Source of the DNA: Candidatus Bathyarchaeia archaeon
Lineage (GTDB): Archaea > Thermoproteota > Bathyarchaeia > Bathyarchaeales > Bathycorpusculaceae
DNA: 64,000 nucleotides
Direction: 5' to 3'
Assembly: GCA_049512075.1 (NCBI GenBank)
Contig: JBEKXL010000003.1
Location: 143,688-207,687 of the forward strand
Shown: one piece after another, positions 3,182 to 51,113 of the stretch
Position numbering within the stretch: the first letter of the stretch is position 1
How the letters are laid out: each line of letters begins with the position of its first letter
Translations under genes and position numbers: made by a program
The notes under the pieces: model-generated
The model's database searches: none
What the model saw: the letters and a program-made list of their open reading frames with translations, nothing else
What the model was told of the DNA's origin: nothing

Positions 3182-4612
3182 CTATGTGATGCTGCGGATG
3201 TTTTCCAGGACACTGCCTAGACGGGAGACGTTCTTTATCGCGGTTCTGACGCGGTAGGGACTTTTAATCAGTCTAGCCATTTGCTTTGAAACAAAAGTTG
3301 GCCGTCGGGCAAAGTGGTAGAAGCCATCATGAATCATCCACCTTATTTCGCTGTAAGGCACTGCGGTGGGATATATCTCCGAAACTGCGATTCCTGTCTC
3401 CCAGTATTCGCCTCCTTTCAGAAGCCCCTTGGCTTCGCATTCGTCCCAGATATCAGTTCCAGGATAAACCCCCAGAATATTGAACTGCGGTACATCTATC
3501 GGAATTCTGTTTGCAAACTCTATCGTGTTTCGGATTTCTTCTCTGGTCTCATTAGGCGCCCCGACGATGAAAGATCCGACTATTATGTCAGCTCCCGCTT
3601 TTCTCGCTGTTCTTACAGCAGTTCTAGATTGTTCAGGCGTTATCCGTTTGTTGTAGTAGTCCAGAATTCTTTGATTGGCGCTTTCGATGCCGAAATAGAG
3701 GACCTTGCAGCCTGCTTTGGCAGTTTCCCAGAACATTTCATAAGAGCCATTGTCGACTCTTCCTTCGCATATCCACTCCATGTCCAGCTTTTCCCTTCTC
3801 ATCTCTCTACAAAGCCTGATGACGTTCTTCGGGTTACCCGTGAAATTGTCATCCACAAAGATGAACTGCTTGTACCCCTCCGAAGCAAGAAAACGCAGTT
3901 CTTCCATAGTATTCTCGACGGATCTGGGTCTCCACCTGTTGTGAGCAAACTGTGTGCAACAACAGAATCGACATCTGTAGACGCAGCCGCGCGAAGAAAC
4001 AACGCTGGTGAACTTTCTCGGAGCTATGTTGGCTCCTGCCATTACTGAGTGGTAGTCTTCGCCGACCAGTGAACGATCTGGAAAAGGAAGGCCGTCCAAA
4101 TCCTTTATCAAAGGACTGTCAGCCGTGGAGGCCACTCCGCCCTCGTTCCTGAAGCTGATTCCGAGAACATCCTTCAACCTTCCCTTGTTCTTGAGACAAT
4201 CCACCAGGTCGACGACTGTTCGTTCTCCTTCTCCACGCACGATGATGTCGACTAAAGGATACTTTCTCAGAACCCTTTCGGGATTGAATGTGGCGTAGTA
4301 GTTTCCGAAAACCACGGTAAGGTTCGGATTTTCCTTTTTGACCTCAGCGCTTATCATCGCGGCGGTACGGCCGGAGGTTGCGAACGTTGAAAAACCAAGA
4401 ATGTCAGGGTTCTCGGCCTTCACCCATTTCGCCGTCTCTTTCACTGTGAGGCCTTTCGCTGCCTGATCGAGCACGGAGACCTCAACACCGTTTTGCTCCA
4501 GCACTGCAGCCAGATACAGGATTCCAAGAGGAGGCCAGGCGCCAAGGGATTTTTTCCTCTCGCGATCATCCAGATCTACGTTCGGACCAGCATTGACGAA
4601 AGAGAACTTCAT
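3182..4612 (-). CDS. B12-binding radical SAM protein
   Basis: PPLGILYLAA, GEGE, SRGCVYRCRFC (CxxxCxxC), FVDDNF, FGIES. Confidence 0.92.
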   Translation of the reverse strand: MKFSFVNAGPNVDLDDRERKKSLGAWPPLGILYLAAVLEQNGVEVSVLDQAAKGLTVKETAKWVKAENPDILGFSTFATSGRTAAMISAEVKKENPNLTVVFGNYYATFNPERVLRKYPLVDIIVRGEGERTVVDLVDCLKNKGRLKDVLGISFRNEGGVASTADSPLIKDLDGLPFPDRSLVGEDYHSVMAGANIAPRKFTSVVSSRGCVYRCRFCCCTQFAHNRWRPRSVENTMEELRFLASEGYKQFIFVDDNFTGNPKNVIRLCREMRREKLDMEWICEGRVDNGSYEMFWETAKAGCKVLYFGIESANQRILDYYNKRITPEQSRTAVRTARKAGADIIVGSFIVGAPNETREEIRNTIEFANRIPIDVPQFNILGVYPGTDIWDECEAKGLLKGGEYWETGIAVSEIYPTAVPYSEIRWMIHDGFYHFARRPTFVSKQMARLIKSPYRVRTAIKNVSRLGSVLENIRSIT

Positions 4613-21569: not shown

Positions 21570-21711
21570 TGGTGGGGTCGCGCGGATTTGAACCGCGGAC
21601 CTACGGGTTTCTCCGTGACAGCTCCAGAACTTCGTCATTCCAGCGTTCTGGTCAGCAAACCCGTTTCTACATTCTGGAGCCCGTCGTCATACCTGCCTAG
21701 ACTACGACCCC
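21570..21711 (-). tRNA. tRNA-Trp(CCA) with 65-nt BHB intron at 37/38 (21609-21673)
   Basis: Acceptor GGGGTCG/CGACCCC plus ACCA; anticodon arm ACGGG-CTCCAG|A-CCCGT; T arm CGCGG-TTCAAAT-CCGCG; BHB CTCC/GGAG with AGA and AAA bulges. Confidence 0.97.
21609..21673 (-). ncRNA. Intron-encoded box C/D guide RNA of tRNA-Trp
   Basis: Guide AACGGGTTT followed by G and D' box CTGA (N+5 gives C39); C' ATGACGA; second guide TTCTGGAG complementary to the anticodon loop. Confidence 0.85.
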
Positions 21712-40004: not shown

Positions 40005-41081
40005 TTGAAGATTCTGGAGATAAACGTAAAGAAAGGTTTTGCGAAGGTTGTTCCTGAAACGATTGATGATTTTTGGCATTTGTACAACGTTATTTACAGA
40101 AACGACAAGGTCTACGCTGGTACGACGAGGGAAGTCAAGGTTGATGAGAAGTACGGCAGACCCAAACGGGGGGAAAGAGTTCCTGTTTTTCTCGGAGTCA
40201 ACGTGGAAGATGTGGGTTGGGACAAGTTTTTGGGCAGGCTCAGAGTTCACGGCACCATATGCGAGGCGCCGGAAACTGTGCCCACTGGTGCGCATCATAC
40301 GCTAAACGTCACGTTGAACACGCCGATTACCATCGTCAAGAAATCTTGGACAAGGCATGAGGTTGAGAGGCTGAAGAGAGCCAGCAGAACCTCCGAAAAA
40401 CCCATCATCGTGGTCTCCATAGACGATGAATGCTACCTCATCGCGACGACTGCCCAGTACGGAATCGAAGAAAGAGTTGAGGAGAGAATAAAGCTTCCGG
40501 GAAAACATGAAGCGGAGAAGAGAAGCGAAGCCACAAGCGCGTATTTCAGAAAGGTGCTGAACAGTCTGCGTCATGTGTGGACGCCCGTTCACAGTCCTAT
40601 AGCAATCATAGGCGTGGGCTTCGTCAAGAATGATTTTGCGAGGTTTGTGGAAACCGAAGCGCCCGACGTTGCAGCTTCAGTGGCGGACGTGAAAAGCGTC
40701 AACAACGGAGGCATGGCAGGAATACATGAAGCGCTTCGTTCTGGCGTGCTATTGAAAACCGTGAGAAAGCTGCGAGTCGCCGAAGAAACAGAGCTTGTCG
40801 AGGAGATTTTGAAGAGGCTTGGAAAGAACGAGGCAACAGTGGCCTACGGGTTTGAAGAAGTCAAGCGGGCAGCGGGGCTCGGCGCAGTTGAAAAGGTCGT
40901 CTTGACAGACAAGATGCTCCGCGAGTCTGATGACGAGAAGCGTCTGCTGATAGAAGAAGTCATGGAAACGGCTGAGCAGAAAGGCGGCACAATAACCGTC
41001 GTCAGCACGGAGCACGAGGCTGGAACTCAGCTCAGTGGACTCGGCGGCATAGCTGCACTCCTGCGCTTCCCACTGCATTAA
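40005..41081 (+). CDS. pelA: Pelota (Dom34) ribosome rescue factor
   Basis: PETIDDFWHLYN, RLRVHG, GAHHTL, LGGIAALLRF. Confidence 0.95.
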   Translation: MKILEINVKKGFAKVVPETIDDFWHLYNVIYRNDKVYAGTTREVKVDEKYGRPKRGERVPVFLGVNVEDVGWDKFLGRLRVHGTICEAPETVPTGAHHTLNVTLNTPITIVKKSWTRHEVERLKRASRTSEKPIIVVSIDDECYLIATTAQYGIEERVEERIKLPGKHEAEKRSEATSAYFRKVLNSLRHVWTPVHSPIAIIGVGFVKNDFARFVETEAPDVAASVADVKSVNNGGMAGIHEALRSGVLLKTVRKLRVAEETELVEEILKRLGKNEATVAYGFEEVKRAAGLGAVEKVVLTDKMLRESDDEKRLLIEEVMETAEQKGGTITVVSTEHEAGTQLSGLGGIAALLRFPLH

Positions 41082-41235
41082 GACTCAGGCTGACTATGGT
41101 TCAGTTGTCTGCTGGAAAGGCGAAAAAAACGCCGTTTGGAATCAAAACTGTATTATATTAGGACGTAGGCAAATCAAAACATTAACAGCAATGCCTATAT
41201 CGTCCGAGCGACATTGTATTCTTGAGGAATGAAAA

Positions 41236-42453
41236 ATGAACATGACAGAAAGCAACATCATTGAGCAGTGGGCAAGCAAATATCCTGAAGTCGTCTCGTG
41301 GCTTGCTAAACTCCAAGTCAAGGAGTTGAACGCGCTGAGCCTTTACCACTTCTGTCAGTGGGCAAACAAAAACCCAACTGAACTGCTAGCGTTGAAAAGC
41401 AATCCTGCCAGCCTAGAGATTGAAAAGCTATTAGACGCTTATGTCGCTGCCAAGCTGTCAGACACTAACGCACTCAGGTTCTGGCGGGTCAATGCGGTCA
41501 AGAGTTTTTTCAAATACTCCTACGTCAGCATAGCAAAAGCAGCGGGCAACATCCAGCTTGTGAAAACTAAAGACTACAACCGATTGTCTAAAGAAGGCTT
41601 AAAGCGTCTGTGGGACAACACCTACAACTTGCGCGATCGTGCGCTAATCACGTTTGTCTGCTCAACTGCCATTGCTAAGGAAACGCTTGGAAGCATCTGT
41701 TGGAAGCATTTACAAGACGACTGGGAAACCGTTGAGCTGCCTTCTATCAATCTCCCACCTGAGATATTGAAAGGTCACGGCAGAGGCAAATATGCTGGCG
41801 TCCGACAAATCACGTTTTTGACGCCTGAGAGCAAACGCGACCTGGTCAACTATAAGGTGTGGCTTGAGCAGAAGATTGGTCGCAAGGTCACGGCTGACGA
41901 TCACATCTGGCTAGAAACCATGCGCCCTTATCGCCCAGTAAGTTATGATGCTTTAGGTTTTGCAATCTGGCAGTTGTCAAAGCGCACAGGTGTCCCCTTC
42001 AGCCTGCATGATGGCAGACGCTGGGTCACAACCGCGCTAGAGCAGGTTGCCATAAGCCAGAACTGGGCGCGCGTCCTCAGAGGTCGCAAGGTAGCAGGTG
42101 CAGAAAGTCCCTATTCTCGACCAAACATTGAAGCGTTAAGAGCCAAGTTCAAGGAGGCCGTTGGGTTGTTGGAGTTTACAACTGTGACTGCCACACCGAC
42201 AGTTCCTAAAGAAGTCGCCGACAAGTTGGCAGCGTTGGAGCAGGAGCAGACCGAGTTGAAAAGGCGATACGGCATAATGCGCGAGAGGACTAAGGGTTGG
42301 AAACAGGTTGCCAAAAATCGCAATGTTTGCAAGGACAGCAAAAACTGCCAACGGATTGTCAGCGAGGACGAGTTGCCTACGTTGTTGAGTGGTGGATGGC
42401 GCGTCGTTACTTGTCTGTCGTCTGGTAAAGTCGTTGTAAGCAACGAAACATGA
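41236..42453 (+). CDS. Tyrosine recombinase/integrase
   Basis: LRDRALI, SLHDGRR (HxxR), ESPYSRP (Tyr); first catalytic Arg position reads STAIAKE. Confidence 0.85.
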   Translation: MNMTESNIIEQWASKYPEVVSWLAKLQVKELNALSLYHFCQWANKNPTELLALKSNPASLEIEKLLDAYVAAKLSDTNALRFWRVNAVKSFFKYSYVSIAKAAGNIQLVKTKDYNRLSKEGLKRLWDNTYNLRDRALITFVCSTAIAKETLGSICWKHLQDDWETVELPSINLPPEILKGHGRGKYAGVRQITFLTPESKRDLVNYKVWLEQKIGRKVTADDHIWLETMRPYRPVSYDALGFAIWQLSKRTGVPFSLHDGRRWVTTALEQVAISQNWARVLRGRKVAGAESPYSRPNIEALRAKFKEAVGLLEFTTVTATPTVPKEVADKLAALEQEQTELKRRYGIMRERTKGWKQVAKNRNVCKDSKNCQRIVSEDELPTLLSGGWRVVTCLSSGKVVVSNET

Positions 42454-42467
42454 TCTCCTTTTTTTGT

Positions 42468-42932
42468 TTAGATTTCAAAGATTTCAGAAGTCGGATGGAA
42501 AGGCTTCTTTTCTCTCTCTTCCTTCTTAGATGTTGTTTGTGGTTTTCGTTTTCTTGCTTTTTTTGTATATCCCCATTGAGCAATAGAGGTTTTCTTGTCG
42601 ATGTGAAAGACTCTGAGAACATCTGTTTCAACAGCTTGTGGTTGCTTGCCTCTGACCACTAAAAACTTCTCAGTGTATTCATAGACCTCTCTCATACTGT
42701 TTTTCTCGTTGATTATGATTTTGCGCTTTACTACTCCTTGACTAACCAATTCTCTGAGATGTTTGCTTAAAGCACCCGAAGACAATTTGGTAAGCGATTT
42801 GAGTTCCGACCAACTTCTATGTTTCTTTTCATTTTCGTCATAAAATGCACGTATGATCTTTTCCTTTGTCCTCAGTGCCTGCTGTTGTTTTTCCGTGAGT
42901 TTGCCTTCACATTCGGTACCGATTAAAGGCAT
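42468..42932 (-). CDS. Winged-helix transcriptional regulator
   Basis: SWSELKSLTKLSSGALSKHLRELVSQGVV. Confidence 0.75.
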   Translation of the reverse strand: MPLIGTECEGKLTEKQQQALRTKEKIIRAFYDENEKKHRSWSELKSLTKLSSGALSKHLRELVSQGVVKRKIIINEKNSMREVYEYTEKFLVVRGKQPQAVETDVLRVFHIDKKTSIAQWGYTKKARKRKPQTTSKKEEREKKPFHPTSEIFEI

Positions 42933-43013
42933 TGTTGACCGTCCCGTGATAATTTGTTCACGATTGCCTTATGTATAATCATATTCACGTTGTTATTCAT
43001 AAACATTGCGTGC

Positions 43014-43178
43014 GTGAGCAACGTGAAGGACAGCACAACAATAACAGTGAAGAAAAAAACTCTTCTTCGTCTCATACTACACTGCCGCAAAAACCAGAGC
43101 TATGATAATCTCATCAACGTTTTGCTAGACAATGAAGAGGCCGTTGAAAAGGCAGCTAAAGAGGTGCGACAGCAATGA
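43014..43178 (+). CDS. Small RHH/antitoxin-like DNA-binding protein
   Basis: STTITVKKKTLLRL...SYDNLINVLLD; divergent from the wHTH gene. Confidence 0.65.
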   Translation: MSNVKDSTTITVKKKTLLRLILHCRKNQSYDNLINVLLDNEEAVEKAAKEVRQQ

Positions 43179-43492
43179 GCATGGAAAAATGGTTCAGCGG
43201 CTTTCCATATACAGAGAAAACGAAGCATTTGTACCGCGAGTACATGGCGATGTTCTGCGACATCCTCAAGACCACACCGGACGACCTTGCCATCAAAACA
43301 CCTGAACAGGTCGTAGAAATCCAAGCAACACTTGCAAACGCTATGAAGAAAATGGGTTTGTCGGAATACACTGTGCATTTGCGGATCCACGCTTTGCGTT
43401 CGTTCTGGCGATACAATGGCGTAGAGTTGCCCGAAGATATTTTCAACTACAAAGATTGTGTGTGGCTCAAACGGGAGAGGAAACAACAATGA
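43175..43492 (+). CDS. Stand-alone integrase N-terminal (core-binding/SAM-like) domain protein
   Basis: TEKTKHLY...F...TPDDL...LSEYTVHLRIHALRSFWRYN. Confidence 0.7.
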   Translation: MSMEKWFSGFPYTEKTKHLYREYMAMFCDILKTTPDDLAIKTPEQVVEIQATLANAMKKMGLSEYTVHLRIHALRSFWRYNGVELPEDIFNYKDCVWLKRERKQQ

Positions 43493-43830
43493 GCGACAAC
43501 TCAGAGTTTTCAACAGAAAAAAGGTCACGTCGAGCCAAGATAGGCCTCCCAGGAACTGTAGAACTGGACGAACAGAAACCTACTGAAACCGATGCCGGCA
43601 AAGCAGCACTTAGGGAACTCATCAGGCAAGCAGCAGAGGACGGAGTAAACGCAGCACGCGCACGCATTACAGAACAACTTCCAACTGCTAAACCGTTAGC
43701 CCCTAAACCTGAAGTCATCGTTGAGCATGGCAGTGAAGTTCTCAAAAACCCTCCAGACACGGCACCTCCAGTCGAGAAGAAGGAAGAGACGCCGTTACAT
43801 CAATGGATACGGAAAAAGCGAGGTGATTGA
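43489..43830 (+). CDS. Hypothetical protein (Pro/Glu-rich)
   Basis: ATGA overlap with the upstream gene; GGAG RBS. Confidence 0.6.
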   Translation: MSDNSEFSTEKRSRRAKIGLPGTVELDEQKPTETDAGKAALRELIRQAAEDGVNAARARITEQLPTAKPLAPKPEVIVEHGSEVLKNPPDTAPPVEKKEETPLHQWIRKKRGD

Positions 43831-44720
43831 GAATGGATAAGGAAACTATCAAGGACCTCTTAGAAGGGAAGTTAGTACGAGTAACAATGGTACCAGACAA
43901 GTTGACTGACCCGATTGACAACTCAATCTTTACACTCAAGGACGTTTTGGAACATGGATATGTGAGTACAGGTGTGCCACTCGCAGTTGAAATAGCAAAA
44001 GAAATCGAGAAGCTCGCGGAATGGCAGACGACATTGCAGCAGAGATTTGATGCTGGCAAAATAGGTATCGACGTTGGCATCTGTCAAAACAAGAGAGTTA
44101 ACGACCGCTACGACGAGTTAGATCGCAATATCCACCACACGACACACACCGCTGAAATCCAAAACGAGAAAACAGGCAAGTTCTTGAAAGCGGAAATCAC
44201 CATCAGCATTTTACCAACTCTACCTGGCTTCTCATATAGCCCTGAGCAGGTTAGGCGATCATTGTCAAAACTGTTGCCATACACCGTAAAGCAGTTGCTG
44301 GACAACGGCGAGTTCAGCCTGTCAGACAAGGATTATTTGGAATACACCCAAGCAGAAGACAGGACAAAATGGCTCGCAGACCACGAGATAAAAGGAGGAC
44401 AGTTTAATCTCTTCTGGATGAAGGACGCTGCTCAAGAACTGCCAAACGTTGAACCTGTATTTGCCGACGCAGTTGGCAGATTGCGGATGCTAGCCGTCCC
44501 AGAACAGGTTATCAACGACTTCAAAACTGTGACCTCATTGCTAACGGACGACCTGAAGCAAAACTACTGGCGACATTACAACTCACTGATGCTCGCCATA
44601 TCTCGCATAGCACTGGCCGAGGCAAGGAGAAATCCACTTGACCTCTCAGGCAACAGAGATTTGGCAGCAGAAGCGGACAAAACACTCGGCAAGATGGTCG
44701 AGAACCCAAGAGGTGAGTAA
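43827..44720 (+). CDS. Hypothetical protein of the element
   Basis: 297-aa ORF, GAGGTGA RBS, operonic overlap. Confidence 0.7.
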   Translation: MRMDKETIKDLLEGKLVRVTMVPDKLTDPIDNSIFTLKDVLEHGYVSTGVPLAVEIAKEIEKLAEWQTTLQQRFDAGKIGIDVGICQNKRVNDRYDELDRNIHHTTHTAEIQNEKTGKFLKAEITISILPTLPGFSYSPEQVRRSLSKLLPYTVKQLLDNGEFSLSDKDYLEYTQAEDRTKWLADHEIKGGQFNLFWMKDAAQELPNVEPVFADAVGRLRMLAVPEQVINDFKTVTSLLTDDLKQNYWRHYNSLMLAISRIALAEARRNPLDLSGNRDLAAEADKTLGKMVENPRGE

Positions 44721-45020
44721 ATGGCAATAGCGGATTTAAGAGTGTATCTGAGAAGCCTACCGTTCTTTTATCCCAAAACCATGGGATGCAGCGGCATTAA
44801 CCAAAGCGGTCAGATAATGAATGCTGGTTCAGATGAAGTAGACGAAACCGTCTTTGTTGAACTACCTTCAGTTCCTGCTCAAGCTGGTCAAGTGCAAGCT
44901 GACTTTGAAAACCTAAGCGGATCGCCAACTGCAGAAACCGTGAAGAAGTGGCTCAGCAAACATACGCCTCCAATGACAGAAGCGCAACGGACGGCAGCGA
45001 TAGCAGCGTTCAACGTGTAA
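44721..45020 (+). CDS. Hypothetical protein; stop codon abuts the hammerhead fold
   Basis: GAGGTGA RBS; immediately follows the previous stop. Confidence 0.65.
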   Translation: MAIADLRVYLRSLPFFYPKTMGCSGINQSGQIMNAGSDEVDETVFVELPSVPAQAGQVQADFENLSGSPTAETVKKWLSKHTPPMTEAQRTAAIAAFNV

Positions 45021-45092
45021 GCTCCCCGATGAGTTGGTGAAAATCCAACGAAACCTGCCGTTATGCACCCAACGGTAGGTCGGAGCGTGCGT
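45012..45092 (+). ncRNA. Type I hammerhead ribozyme (CCGAUGA core variant)
   Basis: Stem I GCTCC/GGAGC; core CCGATGA; stem II GTTGG/CCAAC; GAAA; stem III CCTGCCGTT/AACGGTAGG; GUC cleavage triplet ending at 45081. Confidence 0.85.
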
Positions 45093-45283
45093 GTAAATCG
45101 TCCGCGCATAAGCTCCCAGCTTCGACCAATGGGAGGCTTGCAGGGTAAACGGCTTCCCCTTGCAAGCTTCCAACTCACAGTTGCCTTATGATTGGGGGCA
45201 ACGACCGTCGCTTAAGTGGGACGGCCTACCGGGACCTTGACGCGCCGCGCGCCAGACCCCTCCTAATAACGAGATGATGTAAG

Positions 45284-45457
45284 ATGCCTAAACCTCCACG
45301 CAACGATAAGGTTTTGTATTGGGACAGCGAGCGACACGAATACGTCCTGCTGCCGGCACCGCTTAAGGCACATTGGGGATTGAAGCGGAAACGAATAGCC
45401 CTGGTGCGCGGCAGGGAAAGAGCAGGAATGTGGAAAGATGTCAGAAAAGAAGCCTGA
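45284..45457 (+). CDS. 57-aa basic hypothetical protein (below ORF-track cutoff)
   Basis: Manual translation MPKPPRNDKVLYWDSERHEYVLLPAPLKAHWGLKRKRIALVRGRERAGMWKDVRKEA. Confidence 0.4.
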   Translation: MPKPPRNDKVLYWDSERHEYVLLPAPLKAHWGLKRKRIALVRGRERAGMWKDVRKEA

Positions 45458-45530
45458 TTGGAAGCCTAAGTCACCATCAAGAAAGAAGTGGATGGAAAAC
45501 GGGAAAGACTAAAACGGAGGCGAATGTAAA

Positions 45531-45935
45531 ATGAAGAATGAGGAAACGTTGCTACCTAGAGCCTGTCCATTGTATCTTGAACTGTGTCCTTACGACCTGA
45601 AAAGACTAGGCGAACCAAGACTGGAACAAGGCAGATGCCCAGTGCCAAGCTTGATCACCAAGAACATTGTTGAAGCAGGAGCAAAGGAAGACCCTAAACA
45701 AATGGTTTATGTTACTTGCCCCGAAGTTTATCGACAAAACAAAAACGCTATTGACGACCCAACTCAAGGAATAGGAGGCGTTGTGTGTTATCGTCCTTCC
45801 GATCTTACAACCGACTTCCGCGATTGCCAATTTTACAGCGAGTGGTTTTGCAAGTACAGGGGCAAGAAACCGAAACCGTACAAAGCACCACCTAAGAAAC
45901 AAGAGTTGGTTCATAAGAGCAGGTTAGAGAAATGA
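45531..45935 (+). CDS. Cys-rich hypothetical protein coupled to the ATPase gene
   Basis: GGAGG RBS; seven Cys; stop overlaps the next ATG. Confidence 0.6.
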   Translation: MKNEETLLPRACPLYLELCPYDLKRLGEPRLEQGRCPVPSLITKNIVEAGAKEDPKQMVYVTCPEVYRQNKNAIDDPTQGIGGVVCYRPSDLTTDFRDCQFYSEWFCKYRGKKPKPYKAPPKKQELVHKSRLEK

Positions 45936-47290
45936 AGCGTTTTACTGATAAAGACTTCGCGCGCGCCATAGTAGTTTATCGAGAAGTCGCTATGGCAAAG
46001 AAGAGAGTCAAACGAACGCCAGGCGAGCTGATTAACAAAACCCTTTTTGAACAGGTCGAAGACGGCAAATATCTAGGCGTTGACCTCTCCGAGTTACAGT
46101 TTATCACAGGCAAGGAAGGGCCGCTAACCAAGTGGGAGACTGATGACCTTGACTACCTTCCCCTCCCGCGCCTTCCATGGCGAAGGCTTCACCCACTCTG
46201 CATAACGGAAGAAAGTGCGGAACAACTCTACACAGATGTTAGGCGTTTCATCTACGACCACATCGACTTCTCCAAAGACGTTGAATACGACCTCTGCGCT
46301 TCATGGGTTCTGCACACTTGGAGATTGGAAAACTGGAACGTCACACCCTACCTGTCCTTCTTTGGCCCACCAGCAAGCGGCAAGACGTGGGCGATGGAAG
46401 TGTTAGCGGCGTTGTCGTTTAGGTCGCTGTTAGCCGCTATGTCGCCAGCCTCACTCTACTACGCCACGCAAGAATGGCATCCCACCTGCTTCCTTGACGA
46501 GACAGAGATGTATTTGAGAGGGGAAGAGAAGGCCGACATCCTCAACTATCTGAACATGGGCTACCGGCGCGGGCAAGTGGTAATAAGGACAACAGAGGAT
46601 AAGGACGGCTCACGCTCACCTGTAATGTTTGACGTTTTCGGGCCTAAGTGCCTTGCTGGAACCAAAGAACTATTCGACACCTTGAAGTCTCGCAGCTTCA
46701 CTTTTACCATGAGCAGGAAGACGCGCGAGATTAAGATGACAATCGATGAGGACGCCATTCTCCAACTTAGAAACAGGTTGTTCTCGTACAGGGTCAGGCA
46801 GCTAGCGGCAAACAGAAATCTCATTCTGTCCGCTGACACTTTCCTAAACCAAATCAGAGACGGCAGACTACGAGAGTTGTTTCACCCGCTAATCTCCTGC
46901 TGCCCTCAATCTGTTATTCCCCTGCTTGTCGAATATGCCGTACAACTAGACACCGAGAAAGAGCAGGAGGAAGCTCTAAGTTTGGAAGCGAGGGTTTTCA
47001 ATGCTGTTCTAAAGGCTCGGCAACTCAACGAAGACTTTATTCCGCTAAAGGCCGTTGCTGAAATTGTGAACGAGAACCTCCCACTGAAGGAAGGTTTTAG
47101 CAATCGCGCCATAGGCACATACGTTGCAAAACTAGGCTTCAAGAAACAAATCCATAAGAACCGTGCGCACGTTGTCTGGGACGAGAAACTCATCACTCGC
47201 CTTGCCAAACGCTATCCAATCGACAAAGCAGATGATAGCCCTCCTGAACCTGAACCGTACGACCATTACGCTCACCCTCCTCAGACGTGA
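45932..47290 (+). CDS. P-loop ATPase, putative replicative helicase/Rep (DUF3631-associated type) with C-terminal wHTH
   Basis: WVLHTW, TPYL, GPPASGKT Walker A, CFLDETE Walker B, LNMGYRRG, FGPKCLAG, SR finger. Confidence 0.75.
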   Translation: MKRFTDKDFARAIVVYREVAMAKKRVKRTPGELINKTLFEQVEDGKYLGVDLSELQFITGKEGPLTKWETDDLDYLPLPRLPWRRLHPLCITEESAEQLYTDVRRFIYDHIDFSKDVEYDLCASWVLHTWRLENWNVTPYLSFFGPPASGKTWAMEVLAALSFRSLLAAMSPASLYYATQEWHPTCFLDETEMYLRGEEKADILNYLNMGYRRGQVVIRTTEDKDGSRSPVMFDVFGPKCLAGTKELFDTLKSRSFTFTMSRKTREIKMTIDEDAILQLRNRLFSYRVRQLAANRNLILSADTFLNQIRDGRLRELFHPLISCCPQSVIPLLVEYAVQLDTEKEQEEALSLEARVFNAVLKARQLNEDFIPLKAVAEIVNENLPLKEGFSNRAIGTYVAKLGFKKQIHKNRAHVVWDEKLITRLAKRYPIDKADDSPPEPEPYDHYAHPPQT

Positions 47291-47492
47291 AGACGTGATA
47301 GACGTGGTAGCAGGAACCATACCCCCCTTGCAATACGCGAATACGTGATCATCAAGTGAGTGAGTTTTATAAGATTTTTATTTATCTCTTCAAATCATCC
47401 TTCTTTTGCTGACAGAACAACGGCACAGCAGCAGGGTATATGGTCTCCTGTTCCCCGTCTTTCACGTCTTCGCGTCTCACTAGCGACCAACA

Positions 47493-48182
47493 GCGAACTT
47501 GCCATGCGGGAGTATCCGAAACGTCGAACCTGCAATCTGCCCGATTTCTACCTGCTTTGACAAGTTGATGATGAGTTCGAAGCGAACTGCCAACATCGAA
47601 CTTGGAGTATCCAATGGGCGGCTTTCGAACTTCAATCTGCCCAAAACATCCCTGCTTTACTGCCAATCTCCTCAAATCATCCTTGTTATCTGCCCATTTT
47701 ATCCTTACCGAAGTGTAGGTGTGCTGAACAACAGGAGATGCCCATTTCATCCTTGCATTGGCGTTTGTGGGACGTTTCAGGCAGCAGGATTGAGCGTCGA
47801 ACTGGGACGAATAATGTAAAATACGCCCAAATCGTCCTTGTTTTCGGAAATCGGGCGTGTCAAGCGACTGTAAAAATCTTGGAAGTCGAACCTCAAAACT
47901 CAACCTAACCGCGGTAGGTCGCCGCTGCTTTGTACTTATTGTGCTTTTCCGAAATCCAGTCGAAAAATACACCATCATTTCCCATGCAAGCGTCTAGGCG
48001 TCGAACTGTAGCGGAAAGGGTCGAACTGGGGAGATTTCGAAGCGAACTGGGCGAACTAGGAAAGAATCTGGGAGATTGCTTTTTCATTGTTTCCTGCTGT
48101 CTCCCATGCCATCATCGGATACTCACCTAAAACTCGTCTATCCTCCCCTGCTTGCAGATTTGACTCTCGAACTGGGGAGATT
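47493..48182 (+). repeat. Iteron-like array of CGAAC(T/C) repeats, putative origin
   Basis: 12 co-oriented copies counted; TCGAACTGGGGAGATT identical at 48021 and 48167; TTCGAAGCGAACTG at 47576 and 48036. Confidence 0.7.
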
Positions 48183-48238
48183 AAGGTGTTCAGCAGCGAG
48201 ACATTCACTTTTCCATCAAAATTCCTGCACCTTGCGTT

Positions 48239-48291
48239 CTTTAAATGGTGTCTCCCCTGCTGAAGGTCGAGATCGCTGTTGAACTGTCAAC
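48239..48291 (+). repeat. 53-bp direct repeat, copy 1
   Basis: CTTTAAATGGYGTCTCCCMTGCTGAAGGTCGAGATCGCTGTTGAAYTGTCAAC; three mismatches vs 49358-49410. Confidence 0.9.
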
Positions 48292-48398
48292 TGCTAAAGC
48301 GTCGCCATGCTAGAACGCCATCGACAGTACACCTATCTATGTGCGCGCACTAGGTGCTTTTCAGGTCACAGGCAGCGAGTTCTCAGACGCGTTTCGTA

Positions 48399-49097
48399 TC
48401 AGACTGTTTCTTTGCTTGCCGAAAGACGGAAGTCTATTAATCTCGGAGCAAGTAGGCGAAAGACGTGATAGTCATCTAAATTCTGCTCATGGAAGTTTCT
48501 GGTAATGAAGGTGAATTTTATGAAACCGAATACGAGGTCATTATACCTTTCTCTAAAAGCACTATATGTTTGGTCCAGATATTCGGTCTGTGCACGCGAG
48601 CCAGGAGTTTGAGCAATCGGTTCAATCTTCTTGGTCTTCTCCTTCACAAGCATCGCAAAGTCAGTAACCATTGTCGAATACCTGCCAAACAAGCGCAACA
48701 GTCGAATGAAGACGGGTTTAAATTCGGTTATAGTGTTCTTCTTTTCAAAGAGTTCAAGACTCTTCCGCAATTCTGCATAGTCTTCTTGAACGGTTCTGAA
48801 ATTCTCACGGAACTGAGTTGTCTCGCGTGGCGTGACATCTATGTGAAAATCATTATGCATGTATGCAATTGAATACATGTAGTTATCTCCCATAAACTGT
48901 CCCAATGATTCCACATAGTACCAGAACTCCTTGAGCACATTTTCTGGAACCTCATTCTTCACGGCGGTCTCAGAAACCCGACCCTCCATGTAGTTTATGA
49001 TGCCTTGCCGTGCTATCTCACTCCAATTCACTTCACCAAAATGCTTCATCTTCTCATCCAGTTCGTCGGTTATGTAAAGTGTAATGTTTCTTGCCAT
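48399..49097 (-). CDS. Protein with N-terminal RHH/antitoxin-like domain and helical C-terminus
   Basis: MARNITLYITDELDEKMKHFGEVNWSEIARQGI. Confidence 0.7.
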   Translation of the reverse strand: MARNITLYITDELDEKMKHFGEVNWSEIARQGIINYMEGRVSETAVKNEVPENVLKEFWYYVESLGQFMGDNYMYSIAYMHNDFHIDVTPRETTQFRENFRTVQEDYAELRKSLELFEKKNTITEFKPVFIRLLRLFGRYSTMVTDFAMLVKEKTKKIEPIAQTPGSRAQTEYLDQTYSAFRERYNDLVFGFIKFTFITRNFHEQNLDDYHVFRLLAPRLIDFRLSASKETV

Positions 49098-49224
49098 TGC
49101 TAATCACTGTAAAGAAAGTAAACCCAAATGGTCTTATAAGTGTTGCTGTGGATTATGTGGGTTCTGCAGCTATTAACAGTGGATAAAAGCAAACATATAA
49201 TAGGACGATCAACCCACTGCTACT

Positions 49225-49340
49225 AGGCGCGCACAAATCGGGCTTCAACGGCGACCAGGGTCGTGTTGGCCGCACGGTGTGAGGTCGCTGTTGAGGCAAG
49301 CGATTTGTCTGAGAATAGGTCAACGTGTTATTTTAGTTTT
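49225..49340 (+). ncRNA. Putative hairpin small RNA
   Basis: BRE/TATA-like AAAAGCAAACATATAA at 49185-49200; stems ACAAATCG/CGATTTGT and GCTTCAACGGCGACC/GGTCGCTGTTGAGGC; T-rich tract at about 49328-49341. Confidence 0.5.
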
Positions 49341-49357
49341 TCCTTGCACTCTCACGC

Positions 49358-49410
49358 CTTTAAATGGCGTCTCCCATGCTGAAGGTCGAGATCGCTGTTG
49401 AATTGTCAAC
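49358..49410 (+). repeat. 53-bp direct repeat, copy 2
   Basis: Matches 48239-48291. Confidence 0.9.
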
Positions 49411-49438
49411 AACTCACCGACGTTGCCAACTGCCTGGT

Positions 49439-50395
49439 TCATCTTCTATTGAGAACGTAAGCGAGATACACCGCAATCAGAGGGCCGAAAACTGTTGAAA
49501 ACGCTATGAGGGCAGCGTCTGCGTTGATTTCGCCAGAGTAGAGCAAAAAGACAGGGGCGACGAGGCTGACGGCCGAAATGATGCCGACGACTACCACGTG
49601 TTTGTGAATATCATGCCTTTTGAGGGTTTCAAATATGGGATACTTAAGACTTGGCTTGTCGGTGAAAAGCAGGGTTCCCCGCTTTTGGAAATCTTCAATG
49701 TCACCGTTCATTTGGACTAGTCGGCTCTTGGTCGGCTCGATCAGAAATTGTCCAAACTCCGTGAGCACGAAGAACACCGTGTCCCCCTGCTCCTTCTTGG
49801 TCCTATGTTCAAGAGTATAGATCAGGCGGCTCTCAAACGCCTTCCTGAACTTGTTTAGTTCGCCGCCTATTTCTTCCATCACGACCTTCACGTCACCCAT
49901 CTTCCAATATTCATTCAGGAGCACGTATGTCTCGCGCAGGTATCTGAGACATTGATGCCTCGCTGGCTCCAATCCCTCGTGCACGTACGACGCGAGACTT
50001 GTCCACGCATCGTACACTTTCAGAAATATCTTCTCGTCTGAAGAAAGGTAAAGCTCGTAGAACACTGGAACTCCTTTTGACAATATCATGCGCCGCCCCA
50101 AAAACGAGATGCCAATAGCCCCGAGGAAAAGAAGAATAGTTACGCTGCCCCCAAGTATGGAATTTTTCGAGACGTAAAACACGAAAAACATGGCTGCCAT
50201 GCCGCCGAGCACCAATAAGATCCCCAAATTCTGAACCCTTCTACCCGATCTTGATAGGTCGTTGTAAGTTCTTATGCGTGTTTCAAGTACATCCTTGTGG
50301 TTTTTGAAATAATCCTCCATGGAACGCTCGGGCATCTGCATGTTTAACCATTGTCGGAAACTGCAGATATAATTCTTTTCCTCATAGCGCTTCAC
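49439..50395 (-). CDS. Hypothetical membrane protein (two TM pairs around a helical domain); start uncertain
   Basis: 318-aa ORF with N- and C-terminal hydrophobic hairpins. Confidence 0.65.
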   Translation of the reverse strand: MKRYEEKNYICSFRQWLNMQMPERSMEDYFKNHKDVLETRIRTYNDLSRSGRRVQNLGILLVLGGMAAMFFVFYVSKNSILGGSVTILLFLGAIGISFLGRRMILSKGVPVFYELYLSSDEKIFLKVYDAWTSLASYVHEGLEPARHQCLRYLRETYVLLNEYWKMGDVKVVMEEIGGELNKFRKAFESRLIYTLEHRTKKEQGDTVFFVLTEFGQFLIEPTKSRLVQMNGDIEDFQKRGTLLFTDKPSLKYPIFETLKRHDIHKHVVVVGIISAVSLVAPVFLLYSGEINADAALIAFSTVFGPLIAVYLAYVLNRR

Positions 50396-50519
50396 TGGGC
50401 TGGGTGCATAGAGAAGCGGTCAAACGATATTTTAACTGAGTAAAATGCCGCATACTGGTTTGGTTTGGCACAAGGGTATTATATAAAGCCATAACATATC
50501 CCTAGGGTATAAGTTTGAG

Positions 50520-51113
50520 ATGAATGAAATGAGCAAGAGAAAACCGTCCATACACCTCCAGAACATAGTTGCTTCAGCGACGGTCAATCAGAGGATTAGC
50601 TTGAAAACGATTGTTGAAAAGTTTCCGCACGCCGAGTACAGTCCAAAAGTGTTTCCTGGGCTTGTTTTCCGGTTGAAGAAGCCCAAGACGGCTACGTTGA
50701 TATTTGAAACGGGCAAGATGGTTTGCACGGGGGCGAAGTCGGAGAAGGAAGCGATTCAGGCGGTTAATAAGGTGACGAAGGAGCTGAAAAGCCATGGAAT
50801 ACCAATCACCAACAAACCGGTTATCACCATACAGAACATCGTTGCTTCGGCGGAGTTAAACGGGGAAATAGACTTGGAGAACGTCGTTTACAAGCTCAAG
50901 AGAGTGATGTATGAACCTGAACAGTTTCCAGGAGCGGTCTACAGAATGGAGCAACCGAAGGTCGTGTTTCTCATATTCTCAGCGGGAAAGCTGGTGTGCG
51001 TGGGCGCTAAGAAAGAACAAGACGTCTATGAAGCGGTTGGCAAGCTTCAGGCATTACTGGAAGAACAAGAGCTCATTTTCTACCCAGAAGAGAAGGCTGC
51101 GAGCACTGGGTAG
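50520..51113 (+). CDS. tbp: TATA-box-binding protein
   Basis: Two repeats QNIVASA...Y.P..FPG...LIF..GK.VC.GAK. Confidence 0.98.
   Translation: MNEMSKRKPSIHLQNIVASATVNQRISLKTIVEKFPHAEYSPKVFPGLVFRLKKPKTATLIFETGKMVCTGAKSEKEAIQAVNKVTKELKSHGIPITNKPVITIQNIVASAELNGEIDLENVVYKLKRVMYEPEQFPGAVYRMEQPKVVFLIFSAGKLVCVGAKKEQDVYEAVGKLQALLEEQELIFYPEEKAASTG

Follow-up and report, generated by a model that had tools for sequence, protein, structure and literature searches.

The window analysed here, i.e. the whole stretch of 64,000 nucleotides from a peat archaeon of the Bathyarchaeia, is archaeal in content, as judged from an archaeal RNase P RNA, a 5S rRNA and an intron-bearing tRNA. Within it we found an integrated mobile element of ~9.3 kb (41159-50484, with no strand assigned), flanked by a 9-bp direct repeat, GTATTATAT, with copies at 41150-58 and 50476-84. 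The corresponding empty site occurs in contigs of a diverged, abundant relative (three of four runs), where position 41158 is joined directly to 50513. Taken together, this junction and the GTATTATAT repeat identify 41159-50484 as an inserted mobile element. Its neighbours in the host genome, named after their Pfam matches, are a pelota/eRF1-like gene on one side and a TBP gene on the other. The run of element ORFs starts with an integrase-like ORF (41236-42453), whose PHROG match is weak (phrog_1, E 0.0023), and almost none of the ORFs of the element exhibits a match to a known family.

Two blocks of genes on the + strand meet inside the element. The last gene of the upstream block in the ORF list, ORF99 (44721-45020, + strand), ends with a UAA stop codon (45018-20). 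The downstream block starts with ORF57 (45284-45457, + strand), which encodes a small basic protein, and continues with ORF134 (45531-45935, + strand) and a helicase-like gene of 452 aa (45932-47290, + strand). The product of the latter is similar, in its predicted structure only, to the DUF3631 helicase part of phage primase-helicases; a sequence search of the PDB with this protein returned no match. Its homologs are present in 62 of 301 genomes of the order. ORF99 and ORF57 are separated by a gap of 263 nt, which contains the ribozyme candidate described below, and the two blocks are likely to share one + strand transcript.

The candidate is a hammerhead of type I (45021-45086, + strand), delineated by a check of its base pairs and by alignment with a related locus, L028. 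It comprises a 5-bp stem I (45021-25/45082-86, + strand), the 5' strand of which directly adjoins the stop codon of ORF99, the core segment CCGAUGA (45026-32) with a C at the position termed U4, a 5-bp stem II (45033-37/45045-49) closed by the loop UGAAAAU, the core segment GAA (45050-52), which agrees with the hammerhead consensus, and a 10-bp stem III (45053-62/45071-80). The nucleotide equivalent to C17 is 45081, and from the fit of the sequence the cut is predicted between 45081 and 45082. Stem I can optionally be extended by pairing of ACGUGU (45013-18) with GUGCGU (45087-92) beyond an AA bulge (45019-20), so that the fold spans 45013-45092; these pairs were likewise checked. The three helices meet at the core as in known hammerheads of this type: loops cap stems II and III, and stem I is left open. 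All 26 proposed pairs in the window are of standard kinds. The core fits the consensus at 12 of 13 positions (CCGAUGA/GAA/A-U/C), the sole misfit being the C at U4. The AA bulge 5 bp from the core, combined with a loop II of 6-7 nt, is in our own reading the usual geometry for a contact between loop II and stem I.

The window hammerhead, taken alone, is doubtful because of its Rfam score below the cut-off, the C at U4, and the background of the descriptor search. Rfam at the gathering score reports no hammerhead in the window, and RF00163 at E <= 0.001 matches nothing in the own genome. With relaxed filters, the locus surfaced as the sole hammerhead match in the window, with a RF00008 score of 14.9 bits (21.4 bits for L028) against a gathering cut-off of 48.5 bits. 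A type I descriptor that allowed one substitution in CUGANGA matched twice in the own genome, against a mean of 3.0 matches per Markov-shuffled genome (n=12); stems of at least 20 bp in total, as at this locus, were reached in 1 of the 12 shuffled genomes. No second ribozyme was detected in the element (Rfam at E <= 5, 41000-50700).

The DNA of 45000-45290 is single-copy in its own genome and was found in 0 of 60 relatives, and a blastn search against phages and plasmids gave no match. An ORF99 profile matched nothing in viral contigs or genome contigs, and its sole match among 401 genomes of the order was the own genome. Patterns for the hammerhead and for the leader had 0 matches in genome contigs and viral contigs. 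The covariance model R2 recovered only itself in the own genome, and across 151 genomes (150 relatives plus the own one) it yielded one other match, at 17.5 bits, which contains no ribozyme; RF02276 was found in 0 of the same number of genomes, where its controls were likewise detected in 0. Single-protein scans of viral contigs with the 297-aa and 452-aa proteins produced no match, and when 17 ORFs of the element were compared with 24 loci, the helicase alone was matched. At the 19 loci of helicase homologs (L003-L021), Rfam at the gathering score reported nothing, and scans for the hammerhead core found none in 21 loci and none in 26 loci in a rescan that included the window as well. Among 5.8 billion proteins we found three relatives of ORF99, with 62-76% identity. 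Two of them (P0002 and P0004) are known as proteins alone, and the third, with 71% protein identity, is L028, for which the DNA is available. In addition, a diverged contig of 294 nt (run X8) covers 44970-45228. Of the 17 runs covered, none was an RNA run containing the locus. The comparisons of loci presented below therefore rest on two sequences, the window and L028 being the sole known copies of ribozyme and leader with DNA compared in full.

Conservation between the window and L028 is uneven. The ORF57 proteins share 69% identity over 55 aa, and the nucleotide identity of ORF57 is 75.4%. The last 35 nt up to 45025 match at 34 positions, as compared with 74.8% identity over the rest of ORF99. 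The stop codon and the two strands of stem I, GCUCC and GGAGC, are unchanged, while the ~50 nt between them are identical at only 28 of 56 positions; the interior of the L028 ribozyme reads UUGAAAA-GUCUC-UGGGAU-GGGAC-GAAA-CGUUCCCC-UUCUU-GGGGAAUG-UC. L028 nonetheless aligns at 91.2 bits to a covariance model for which the window sequence was the only input. On this model-based alignment of window and L028, 51 of 52 paired cells are indeed paired, the lone exception being the 10th pair of stem III, which in L028 has 9 bp. Between the two sequences, seven pairs are changed on both sides (three of five in stem II, four of ten in stem III), a level reached by 5 of 500 shuffles, and slid controls contained 0-1 such pairs. 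Stem I shows no changed pair (0 of 11), the pairs of its extension being invariant too.

The cores differ at positions 3, 4, 7 and 8 alone: C3-G8 is replaced by U3-A8 and C4 by U4, position 7 is free to vary, and the resulting L028 core is UUGAAAA. Both loci keep G5, A6, A9, G12-A14, A15.1-U16.1, C17 and G10.1-C11.1. As far as sequence can tell, the differences are exactly of the tolerated kinds. According to the available text of Perreault et al. 2011 (PMC3088659), the C3-G8 pair covaries to U3-A8 in several natural active hammerheads, and a U4C variant of a viroid had considerably lowered activity in vitro and retained infectivity. The case for a hammerhead is strengthened because L028 rewrites stems II and III yet keeps the same three-way junction. 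With this covariation, the hammerhead assumed in an earlier, sequence-only reading of this DNA is very probably real, and we consider it quite probable that 45021-45086 represents a true hammerhead lineage, predicted to be self-cleaving.

Three further pairings within this region were considered and rejected. In L028, loop II is able to pair with CUCCCA (-7.6 kcal/mol), and the best partner of the window loop reaches -1.9 kcal/mol; a pseudoknot between loop II and the tail following the first leader hairpin was not accepted as covariation, as the own and the cross combinations were not separable. The pairing of UGAGUUGG (45030-37) with CCAACUCA (45170-77) is present in the window, but its hammerhead side is not kept in L028. 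The pairing of the 3' arm of stem III with 45222-31 is not kept in L028 either.

The predicted cut is followed by a chain of four hairpins. The first of them, H1 (45082-45116, + strand), termed a decoy in the sequence-only reading, has 12 bp with an AA bulge and the loop UAAAUCGUC, and its 3' arm repeats the UAAGCUCC of stem I. The features that the earlier reading had listed here are indeed present: there are two copies of the 9-mer TAAGCTCCC, at 45018-26 and 45109-17, and GGAGCGUGCGUG (45082-93) can pair with CGCGCAU-AA-GCUCC (45103-16), this hairpin being the dominant local fold (both MFE and centroid), with a predicted stability of -15.7 kcal/mol on the + strand and -12.6 kcal/mol on the - strand. 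Of the two identical 8-nt strands UAAGCUCC, one adjoins the stop codon of ORF99 and the other lies 91 nt downstream. The first base of H1 is also the first base of the predicted 3' cleavage product (G45082). The block 45082-45119 is identical in L028 at 38 of 38 positions, including both arms of H1.

H2 (45132-45171, + strand; arms 45132-45/45158-71) was also correctly recognised as a 14-bp hairpin; it contains two copies of the near-palindrome CUUGCARG and has a predicted energy of -22.7 kcal/mol. In L028 it carries three one-sided changes, all of which still allow pairing, and its tip is replaced; this locus additionally has, as insertions, another hairpin of the H2 type and a further two of small size. 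A diverged contig from a sediment metagenome has insertions at 45141, 45143 and 45156, all in the tip of H2. The two remaining hairpins of the earlier reading appear in the predicted folds as well. H3 (45180-45202, + strand) has 8 bp and a conserved loop AUGAUUG; its L028 counterpart, with the stem GUCUCGU/GCGAGAC, exhibits three pair changes on both sides (pairs assigned by eye) around the same loop. H4 (45205-45224, + strand), a hairpin of the form CCGUC...GACGG, is identical in L028 and hence offers no evidence from covariation. The chain is followed by a conserved G+C-rich leader tail (45232-45283, + strand), in which GAGAUGAUG (45271-79), preceding the start codon of ORF57, looks Shine-Dalgarno-like. 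In 45203-45286, 82 of 85 aligned columns are identical in L028. G-U pairs occur in each of the four hairpins, and folding the - strand instead costs 2.8-3.4 kcal/mol of stability, which indicates that the structure belongs to the + strand RNA. We read the region as a conserved, modular, structured leader of the predicted 3' cleavage product.

The significance of these features should not be derived from the window itself. The TAAGCTCCC repeat alone is not beyond chance, since three direct repeats of 8-10 nt turned up in the 501 nt scanned, and the fold z-scores are modest: -2.2 (3 of 200 shuffles as good), -2.1 (5 of 200) and -1.65 (16 of 200). The downstream features stand above chance because they are kept in L028. 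Stem I and H1 are invariant in both sequences and hence yield no covariation that could favour or disfavour either pairing; a recent recombination, or a constraint acting on the DNA or the protein, could account for their identity as well. Other blocks of the leader are equally identical, so that conservation does not single out H1.

The 3' arm of H1 copies the 5' strand of stem I, and hence strand exchange allows GGAGC to pair with one copy or the other. As the 3' strand of stem I has a conserved second partner, the ribozyme fold and H1 are mutually exclusive, as the sequence-only reading had proposed. It should be kept in mind that pairing the first base of the 3' product within a hairpin requires a copy of the 5' strand of stem I. 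To describe the competition, we used a nearest-neighbour equilibrium model without tertiary contacts, with three states over 45008-45120. State A, the hammerhead with the extended stem I, is the least stable (-28.9 kcal/mol in the window, -29.9 kcal/mol in L028). In state B the hammerhead with a 5-bp stem I coexists with the distal 7 bp of H1 (-35.6 and -36.6 kcal/mol), and in state C the full H1 is formed and the ribozyme is open (-37.2 and -37.9 kcal/mol). The cleavage-competent state B lies above state C by just 1.6 kcal/mol in the window and 1.3 kcal/mol in L028, which speaks against the earlier statement that H1 destroys the ribozyme; the two UAAGCUCC copies being identical, B and C differ only by loop terms. 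The modelled barriers in the window are 5.3 kcal/mol for A to B, 9.0 kcal/mol for B to C and 10.6 kcal/mol for C to B.

When the 3' end of the modelled RNA was varied, the probability of stem I was 0.45-0.99 at ends 45096-45111 and at most 0.13 from 45116, except for 0.31 at 45122, falling to at most 0.03 from 45126 on; the probability of H1 was at least 0.91 at each modelled end from 45126 to 45386. For the uncut full-length RNA, the probability of stem I is 0.001-0.03, a value compatible with a role of H1 in gating as well as in capping. The transient windows of stem I formation in L028 differ from those of the window. The sequence-only reading envisaged an attenuator-like relay of four steps, in which transcripts of increasing length would be on, off, on and off. 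The model instead gives on, off, off and off, with stem I probabilities of 0.45, 0.05, 0.002 and 0.003 at 45096, 45120, 45141 and 45176, i.e. there is no return to the on state, and the third element of the relay is not conserved in L028. That element was the pairing of CUCCCA (45113-18) with UGGGAG (45130-35), supposed to sequester the decoy; the complementarity exists, but the sequestering role finds no counterpart, since the pairing is absent from the predicted ensembles and is not conserved, the L028 equivalent of UGGGAG being ACGGAG behind a 30-nt insertion.

Nor does the competition appear specific. The energetic cost of forcing the hammerhead fold is 5.9 kcal/mol for the actual downstream sequence and 5.45 +/- 2.3 kcal/mol when the downstream 190 nt are shuffled (n=300), the hammerhead being disfavoured as much or more in 109 of 300 shuffles; if only the 5-bp stem I is forced, the costs are 1.7 and 0.94 +/- 1.9 kcal/mol, with 60 of 300 shuffles at or above the real value. 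Shuffled downstream sequence being equally unfavourable, the model cannot serve to demonstrate that the ribozyme is switched off by H1, and on the strength of this control the thermodynamic decoy argument was dropped. As to a trigger, no ligand, antisense RNA or ribosome that would act as one was identified; Rfam gave neither an aptamer nor any other family at E <= 5 in 41000-50700, apart from a single miRNA-like match that we attribute to chance. An effect of the ribosome is conceivable, as the stop codon adjoins stem I.

These results lead us to favour, with a probability of roughly one half, an intercistronic hammerhead in the 9.3-kb element of a peat archaeon in which H1 serves to release the product by strand exchange and to cap its 5' end. 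The polycistronic + strand RNA would be cut after C45081; the upstream mRNA would then end in the 10-bp hairpin of stem III, and the downstream mRNA (ORF57, ORF134 and the helicase-like gene) would start with a 5'-OH at G45082 and carry a leader of 202 nt with the hairpin chain H1 to H4. The distal 7 bp of H1 would form first, beside the 5-bp stem I, and the cut would occur in that state. The downstream copy of UAAGCUCC would then displace the upstream copy from GGAGC, and this displacement would free the product, block re-ligation and bury the new 5' end in a hairpin. As a side effect, the same competition probably lowers the cleaved fraction somewhat. Cleavage, folding order, product release and capping are all steps that we infer. 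Release and capping are favoured because the conserved H1 is flush with the predicted cut. The sequence-only reading had itself offered, as its alternative, that the fold shields the 3' product after release, and as H1 begins at the first base of that product, this alternative fits best; H1 is more likely a device for release and capping than a multi-step switch.

The main rival of release and capping is a kinetic gate, a pared-down version of the switch proposed in the sequence-only reading, in which H1 is a true decoy and the cut is made only before 45103-16 is transcribed or while the upstream copy is not occluded, the ratio of cut to uncut RNA being set by polymerase speed, by pausing, or by a ribosome terminating on the UAA that adjoins stem I. 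The modelled probabilities of stem I, high for 3' ends up to 45111 and low from 45116, are what such a gate would produce; full H1 is the state of lowest energy in both loci, the barrier out of the state with extended stem I is low (5.3 kcal/mol), the stop codon adjoins stem I in both loci, and both cores are non-consensus and therefore probably slow. The available text of Carbonell et al. 2006 (PMC1636495) describes natural hammerheads as selected for co-transcriptional action and as trappable by metastable folds. However, the gap between states B and C (1.3-1.6 kcal/mol) is within the error of the model even before any tertiary stabilisation, the shuffled sequences disfavour the hammerhead equally, both in full and with the 5-bp stem I, the Rfam search described above found no sensor, and the later steps of the relay are absent. 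Moreover, with B/C barriers of 9-10.6 kcal/mol a ribosome would cause transient inhibition and no lasting decision. We regard the gate as rather unlikely. A combined scheme, in which a ribosome at the ORF99 stop codon or the speed of the polymerase decides whether the operon RNA is split, and strand exchange later ejects and caps the product, appears distinctly unlikely.

It is also improbable that the hammerhead is a relic, inactive or nearly so because of a damaged core, with the hairpins from stem III to H4 forming a structured leader or a protein-binding RNA and the likeness of H1 to stem I being left over from a duplication. The non-consensus cores of both loci, their scores under the Rfam cut-offs and the high descriptor background would agree with decay. 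The H2-type CUUGCARG hairpin is duplicated in L028, where the motif is found 6 times versus 0.67 expected (reached in 0 of 200 shuffles), an enrichment that suggests a sequence-specific binder. Against decay, the key core positions are kept while both stems have been rewritten with seven compensatory pairs, no pair is broken within the stem length common to the window and L028, and the two core changes are of types that activity tolerates according to the available text of PMC3088659.

Finally, a function of the DNA itself, with the hairpins and the CTTGCAAG palindromes forming a replication origin, an operator or a recombination site before the replication genes, is very improbable: the region does lie upstream of the helicase-like gene, several of its blocks are perfectly conserved, and the palindrome CTTGCAAG occurs twice in the window leader, with three exact copies of CTTGCARG in the L028 leader and a fourth that reads CTTGCAGT (by eye), but the four hairpins, with their G-U pairs, lose 2.8-3.4 kcal/mol of stability when folded from the - strand, H2 and H3 have changed in ways that keep the + strand paired, the start-to-start spacing of the motif is irregular (22 nt in the window versus 25 and 30 nt in two L028 hairpins, one copy by eye), the motif is not enriched in the window (12 found versus 6.8 expected, 9 of 100 shuffles), and L028 possesses the leader yet has no helicase gene within 2.6 kb downstream.

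The locus offers a compact, testable case of a variant-core hammerhead at an operon joint, with both predicted products ending in stable hairpins and with a conserved copy of a ribozyme strand placed so that it could release and cap the product or throttle the cut. Were cleavage and strand exchange both demonstrated, they would provide a natural design rule for irreversible ribozyme cuts and for stabilised mRNAs with a 5'-OH, and the locus would add an archaeal hammerhead outside the haloviruses. The combined scheme with a deciding ribosome or polymerase would, if true, place the processing of a prokaryotic mRNA by a self-cleaving ribozyme under translation- or transcription-coupled control. 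If none of this applies, the locus is an ordinary new representative of an established class of ribozymes, with an unexplained leader structure behind it.

The candidate shares the three-way junction and the core with the known hammerheads of prokaryotes and prophages (Rfam clan CL00010, type I RF00163), and like those described in the available text of PMC3088659 it is intergenic within a mobile element that bears an integrase. The same text reports many prokaryotic hammerheads near integrases in prophages, proposes a role in processing of polycistronic RNA and counts "at least three" archaeal examples; in the available text of a 2019 review (PMC6765202), such processing by prokaryotic hammerheads is merely suggested, with more work said to be needed. 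The present locus differs in that it scores under the Rfam hammerhead cut-offs, in its archaeal host, and in its long conserved leader, where the first hairpin reproduces one stem I strand. In literature searches and in the available text of PMC3088659 we found no description of such a hairpin for prokaryotic hammerheads, although its supplementary alignments may hold examples.

A RF00163 search of 150 genomes of the same family and of the own genome revealed two canonical type I hammerheads in this archaeal family (L032 1501-1559 and L033 1501-1557, - strand; 35.5 and 29.8 bits versus a cut-off of 34 bits). Both resemble the present one in type and in the 5-bp stem II, with a loop of 7 or 8 nt, and in both the stop codon of a small ORF upstream marks the start of stem I, within virus-like gene clusters. 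In contrast, they possess the consensus CUGAUGA core and have a Shine-Dalgarno sequence and an ATG ~10-20 nt past the cut; they have neither the mimic of stem I nor a structured leader, and their flanking genes are unrelated to those found here. As they do without a hairpin copying stem I, the cap is not a general need and H1 appears special to the present module. In the haloarchaeal viruses HF1/HF2, according to the available text of PMC3088659, an HHphage variant is located 13 nt upstream of the start codon of a helicase gene; like the present candidate, it has a variant core and precedes a helicase gene. It lies in an archaeal virus, upstream of early and replication genes, and a 5' end has been mapped near its cut. 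By its description it is set apart through insertions in the core, as against a point variant and a 202-nt leader here.

RiboJ-type insulators are similar to the scheme proposed here in that the upstream RNA is cut off and the downstream message receives a defined 5' end bearing a hairpin. RiboJ, however, is engineered; the body of its ribozyme remains attached to the 3' product, and strand exchange involving stem I is not known to play a part. Parallels to the competition itself come from satellite and viroid RNAs. The hammerhead of the barley yellow dwarf virus satellite is reportedly attenuated by an alternative fold, in work ascribed to Miller & Silver in 1991 and Song et al. in 1999. For the hammerhead of eggplant latent viroid, the available text of PMC1636495 describes a competing structure that lowers self-cleavage and the importance of co-transcriptional timing. 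Those are replicating circular RNAs that protect their mature form, whereas here a DNA element would make an mRNA, and, in contrast to the satellite and viroid folds, the competitor is an exact copy of a stem I strand at the 5' end of the predicted product.

The integrated mobile element (the island, 41159-50484, about 9.3 kb) is flanked on both sides by a 9-bp direct repeat, GTATTATAT (41150-41158 and 50476-50484), and is followed immediately downstream by the TBP gene. An empty site, in which 41158 is joined to 50513, was found in contigs of a diverged, abundant relative from three peat runs. Within the island, the segment from the candidate hammerhead to H4, the last of the leader hairpins, has a counterpart in a freshwater-sediment run, where a 294-nt contig spans exactly this stretch (44970-45228) with 13 substitutions and, in the tip of the second hairpin, H2, insertions behind 45141, 45143 and 45156.

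In the archaeal family of the source genome, canonical type I hammerheads were detected in loci from two further genomes, both on the minus strand: L032 (1501-1559), which scores 35.5 bits against a cut-off of 34 bits, and L033 (1501-1557), which scores 29.8 bits against the same cut-off. In both cases the stop codon of a small hydrophobic ORF marks the start of the hammerhead, and a Shine-Dalgarno sequence and an ATG lie no more than about 20 nt downstream of the ribozyme; the neighboring genes match phage families (a tail completion/Neck1 family and phrog_23653). Our relaxed type I descriptor also gave a second match in the source genome, outside the window on contig C1 near 340887, with the core CTCAAGA (C in place of G5) and stems of 6, 6 and 5 bp; since the background of this descriptor is 3.0 matches per shuffled genome, this match is probably due to chance. 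The same genome carries a second copy, 39% identical, of the 452-aa helicase-like gene of the island (contig C9, 40468-41502), and no hammerhead-like motif was found in the 16 kb around it.

In L028, the relative locus with homologs of the hammerhead, the leader and ORF57, loop II of the hammerhead (UGGGAU) has a complement in the H1 hairpin, namely CUCCCA of its 3' arm (3368-3375, -7.6 kcal/mol). The window counterpart, UGGGAG, lies at a different place, downstream at 45130-35; this may be either a coincidence or a relocated helper element. The near-palindrome CTTGCARG, which may be a binding motif, occurs 6 times in L028 (0.67 expected per 6.3 kb; none of 200 shuffles reach 6), with sites listed at 3448, 3498, 3528, 4014 and 5090, some of them outside the leader; in the window it is not enriched (12 observed, 6.8 expected).

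A noncoding repeat of 60-80 nt (...TTTAAATGG.GTCTCCC..TGCTGAAGGTCGAGATCGCTGTTGAA...) is common to the island and L028, with two copies in the former (48205-48283 and 49342-49402) and one in L028 (6077-6156), at 84-95% identity. Elsewhere in the window, Rfam identifies a tRNA on the minus strand (21573-21711, 50 bits) whose anticodon loop is interrupted by an insertion of 69 nt, presumably an intron; ARAGORN reported zero tRNAs over the whole window. Finally, the ORF located 3' of the ORF57 homolog in L028 (3939-4481, plus strand) encodes the sequence LAGLWDGEGW, which resembles the LAGLIDADG motif of homing endonucleases.
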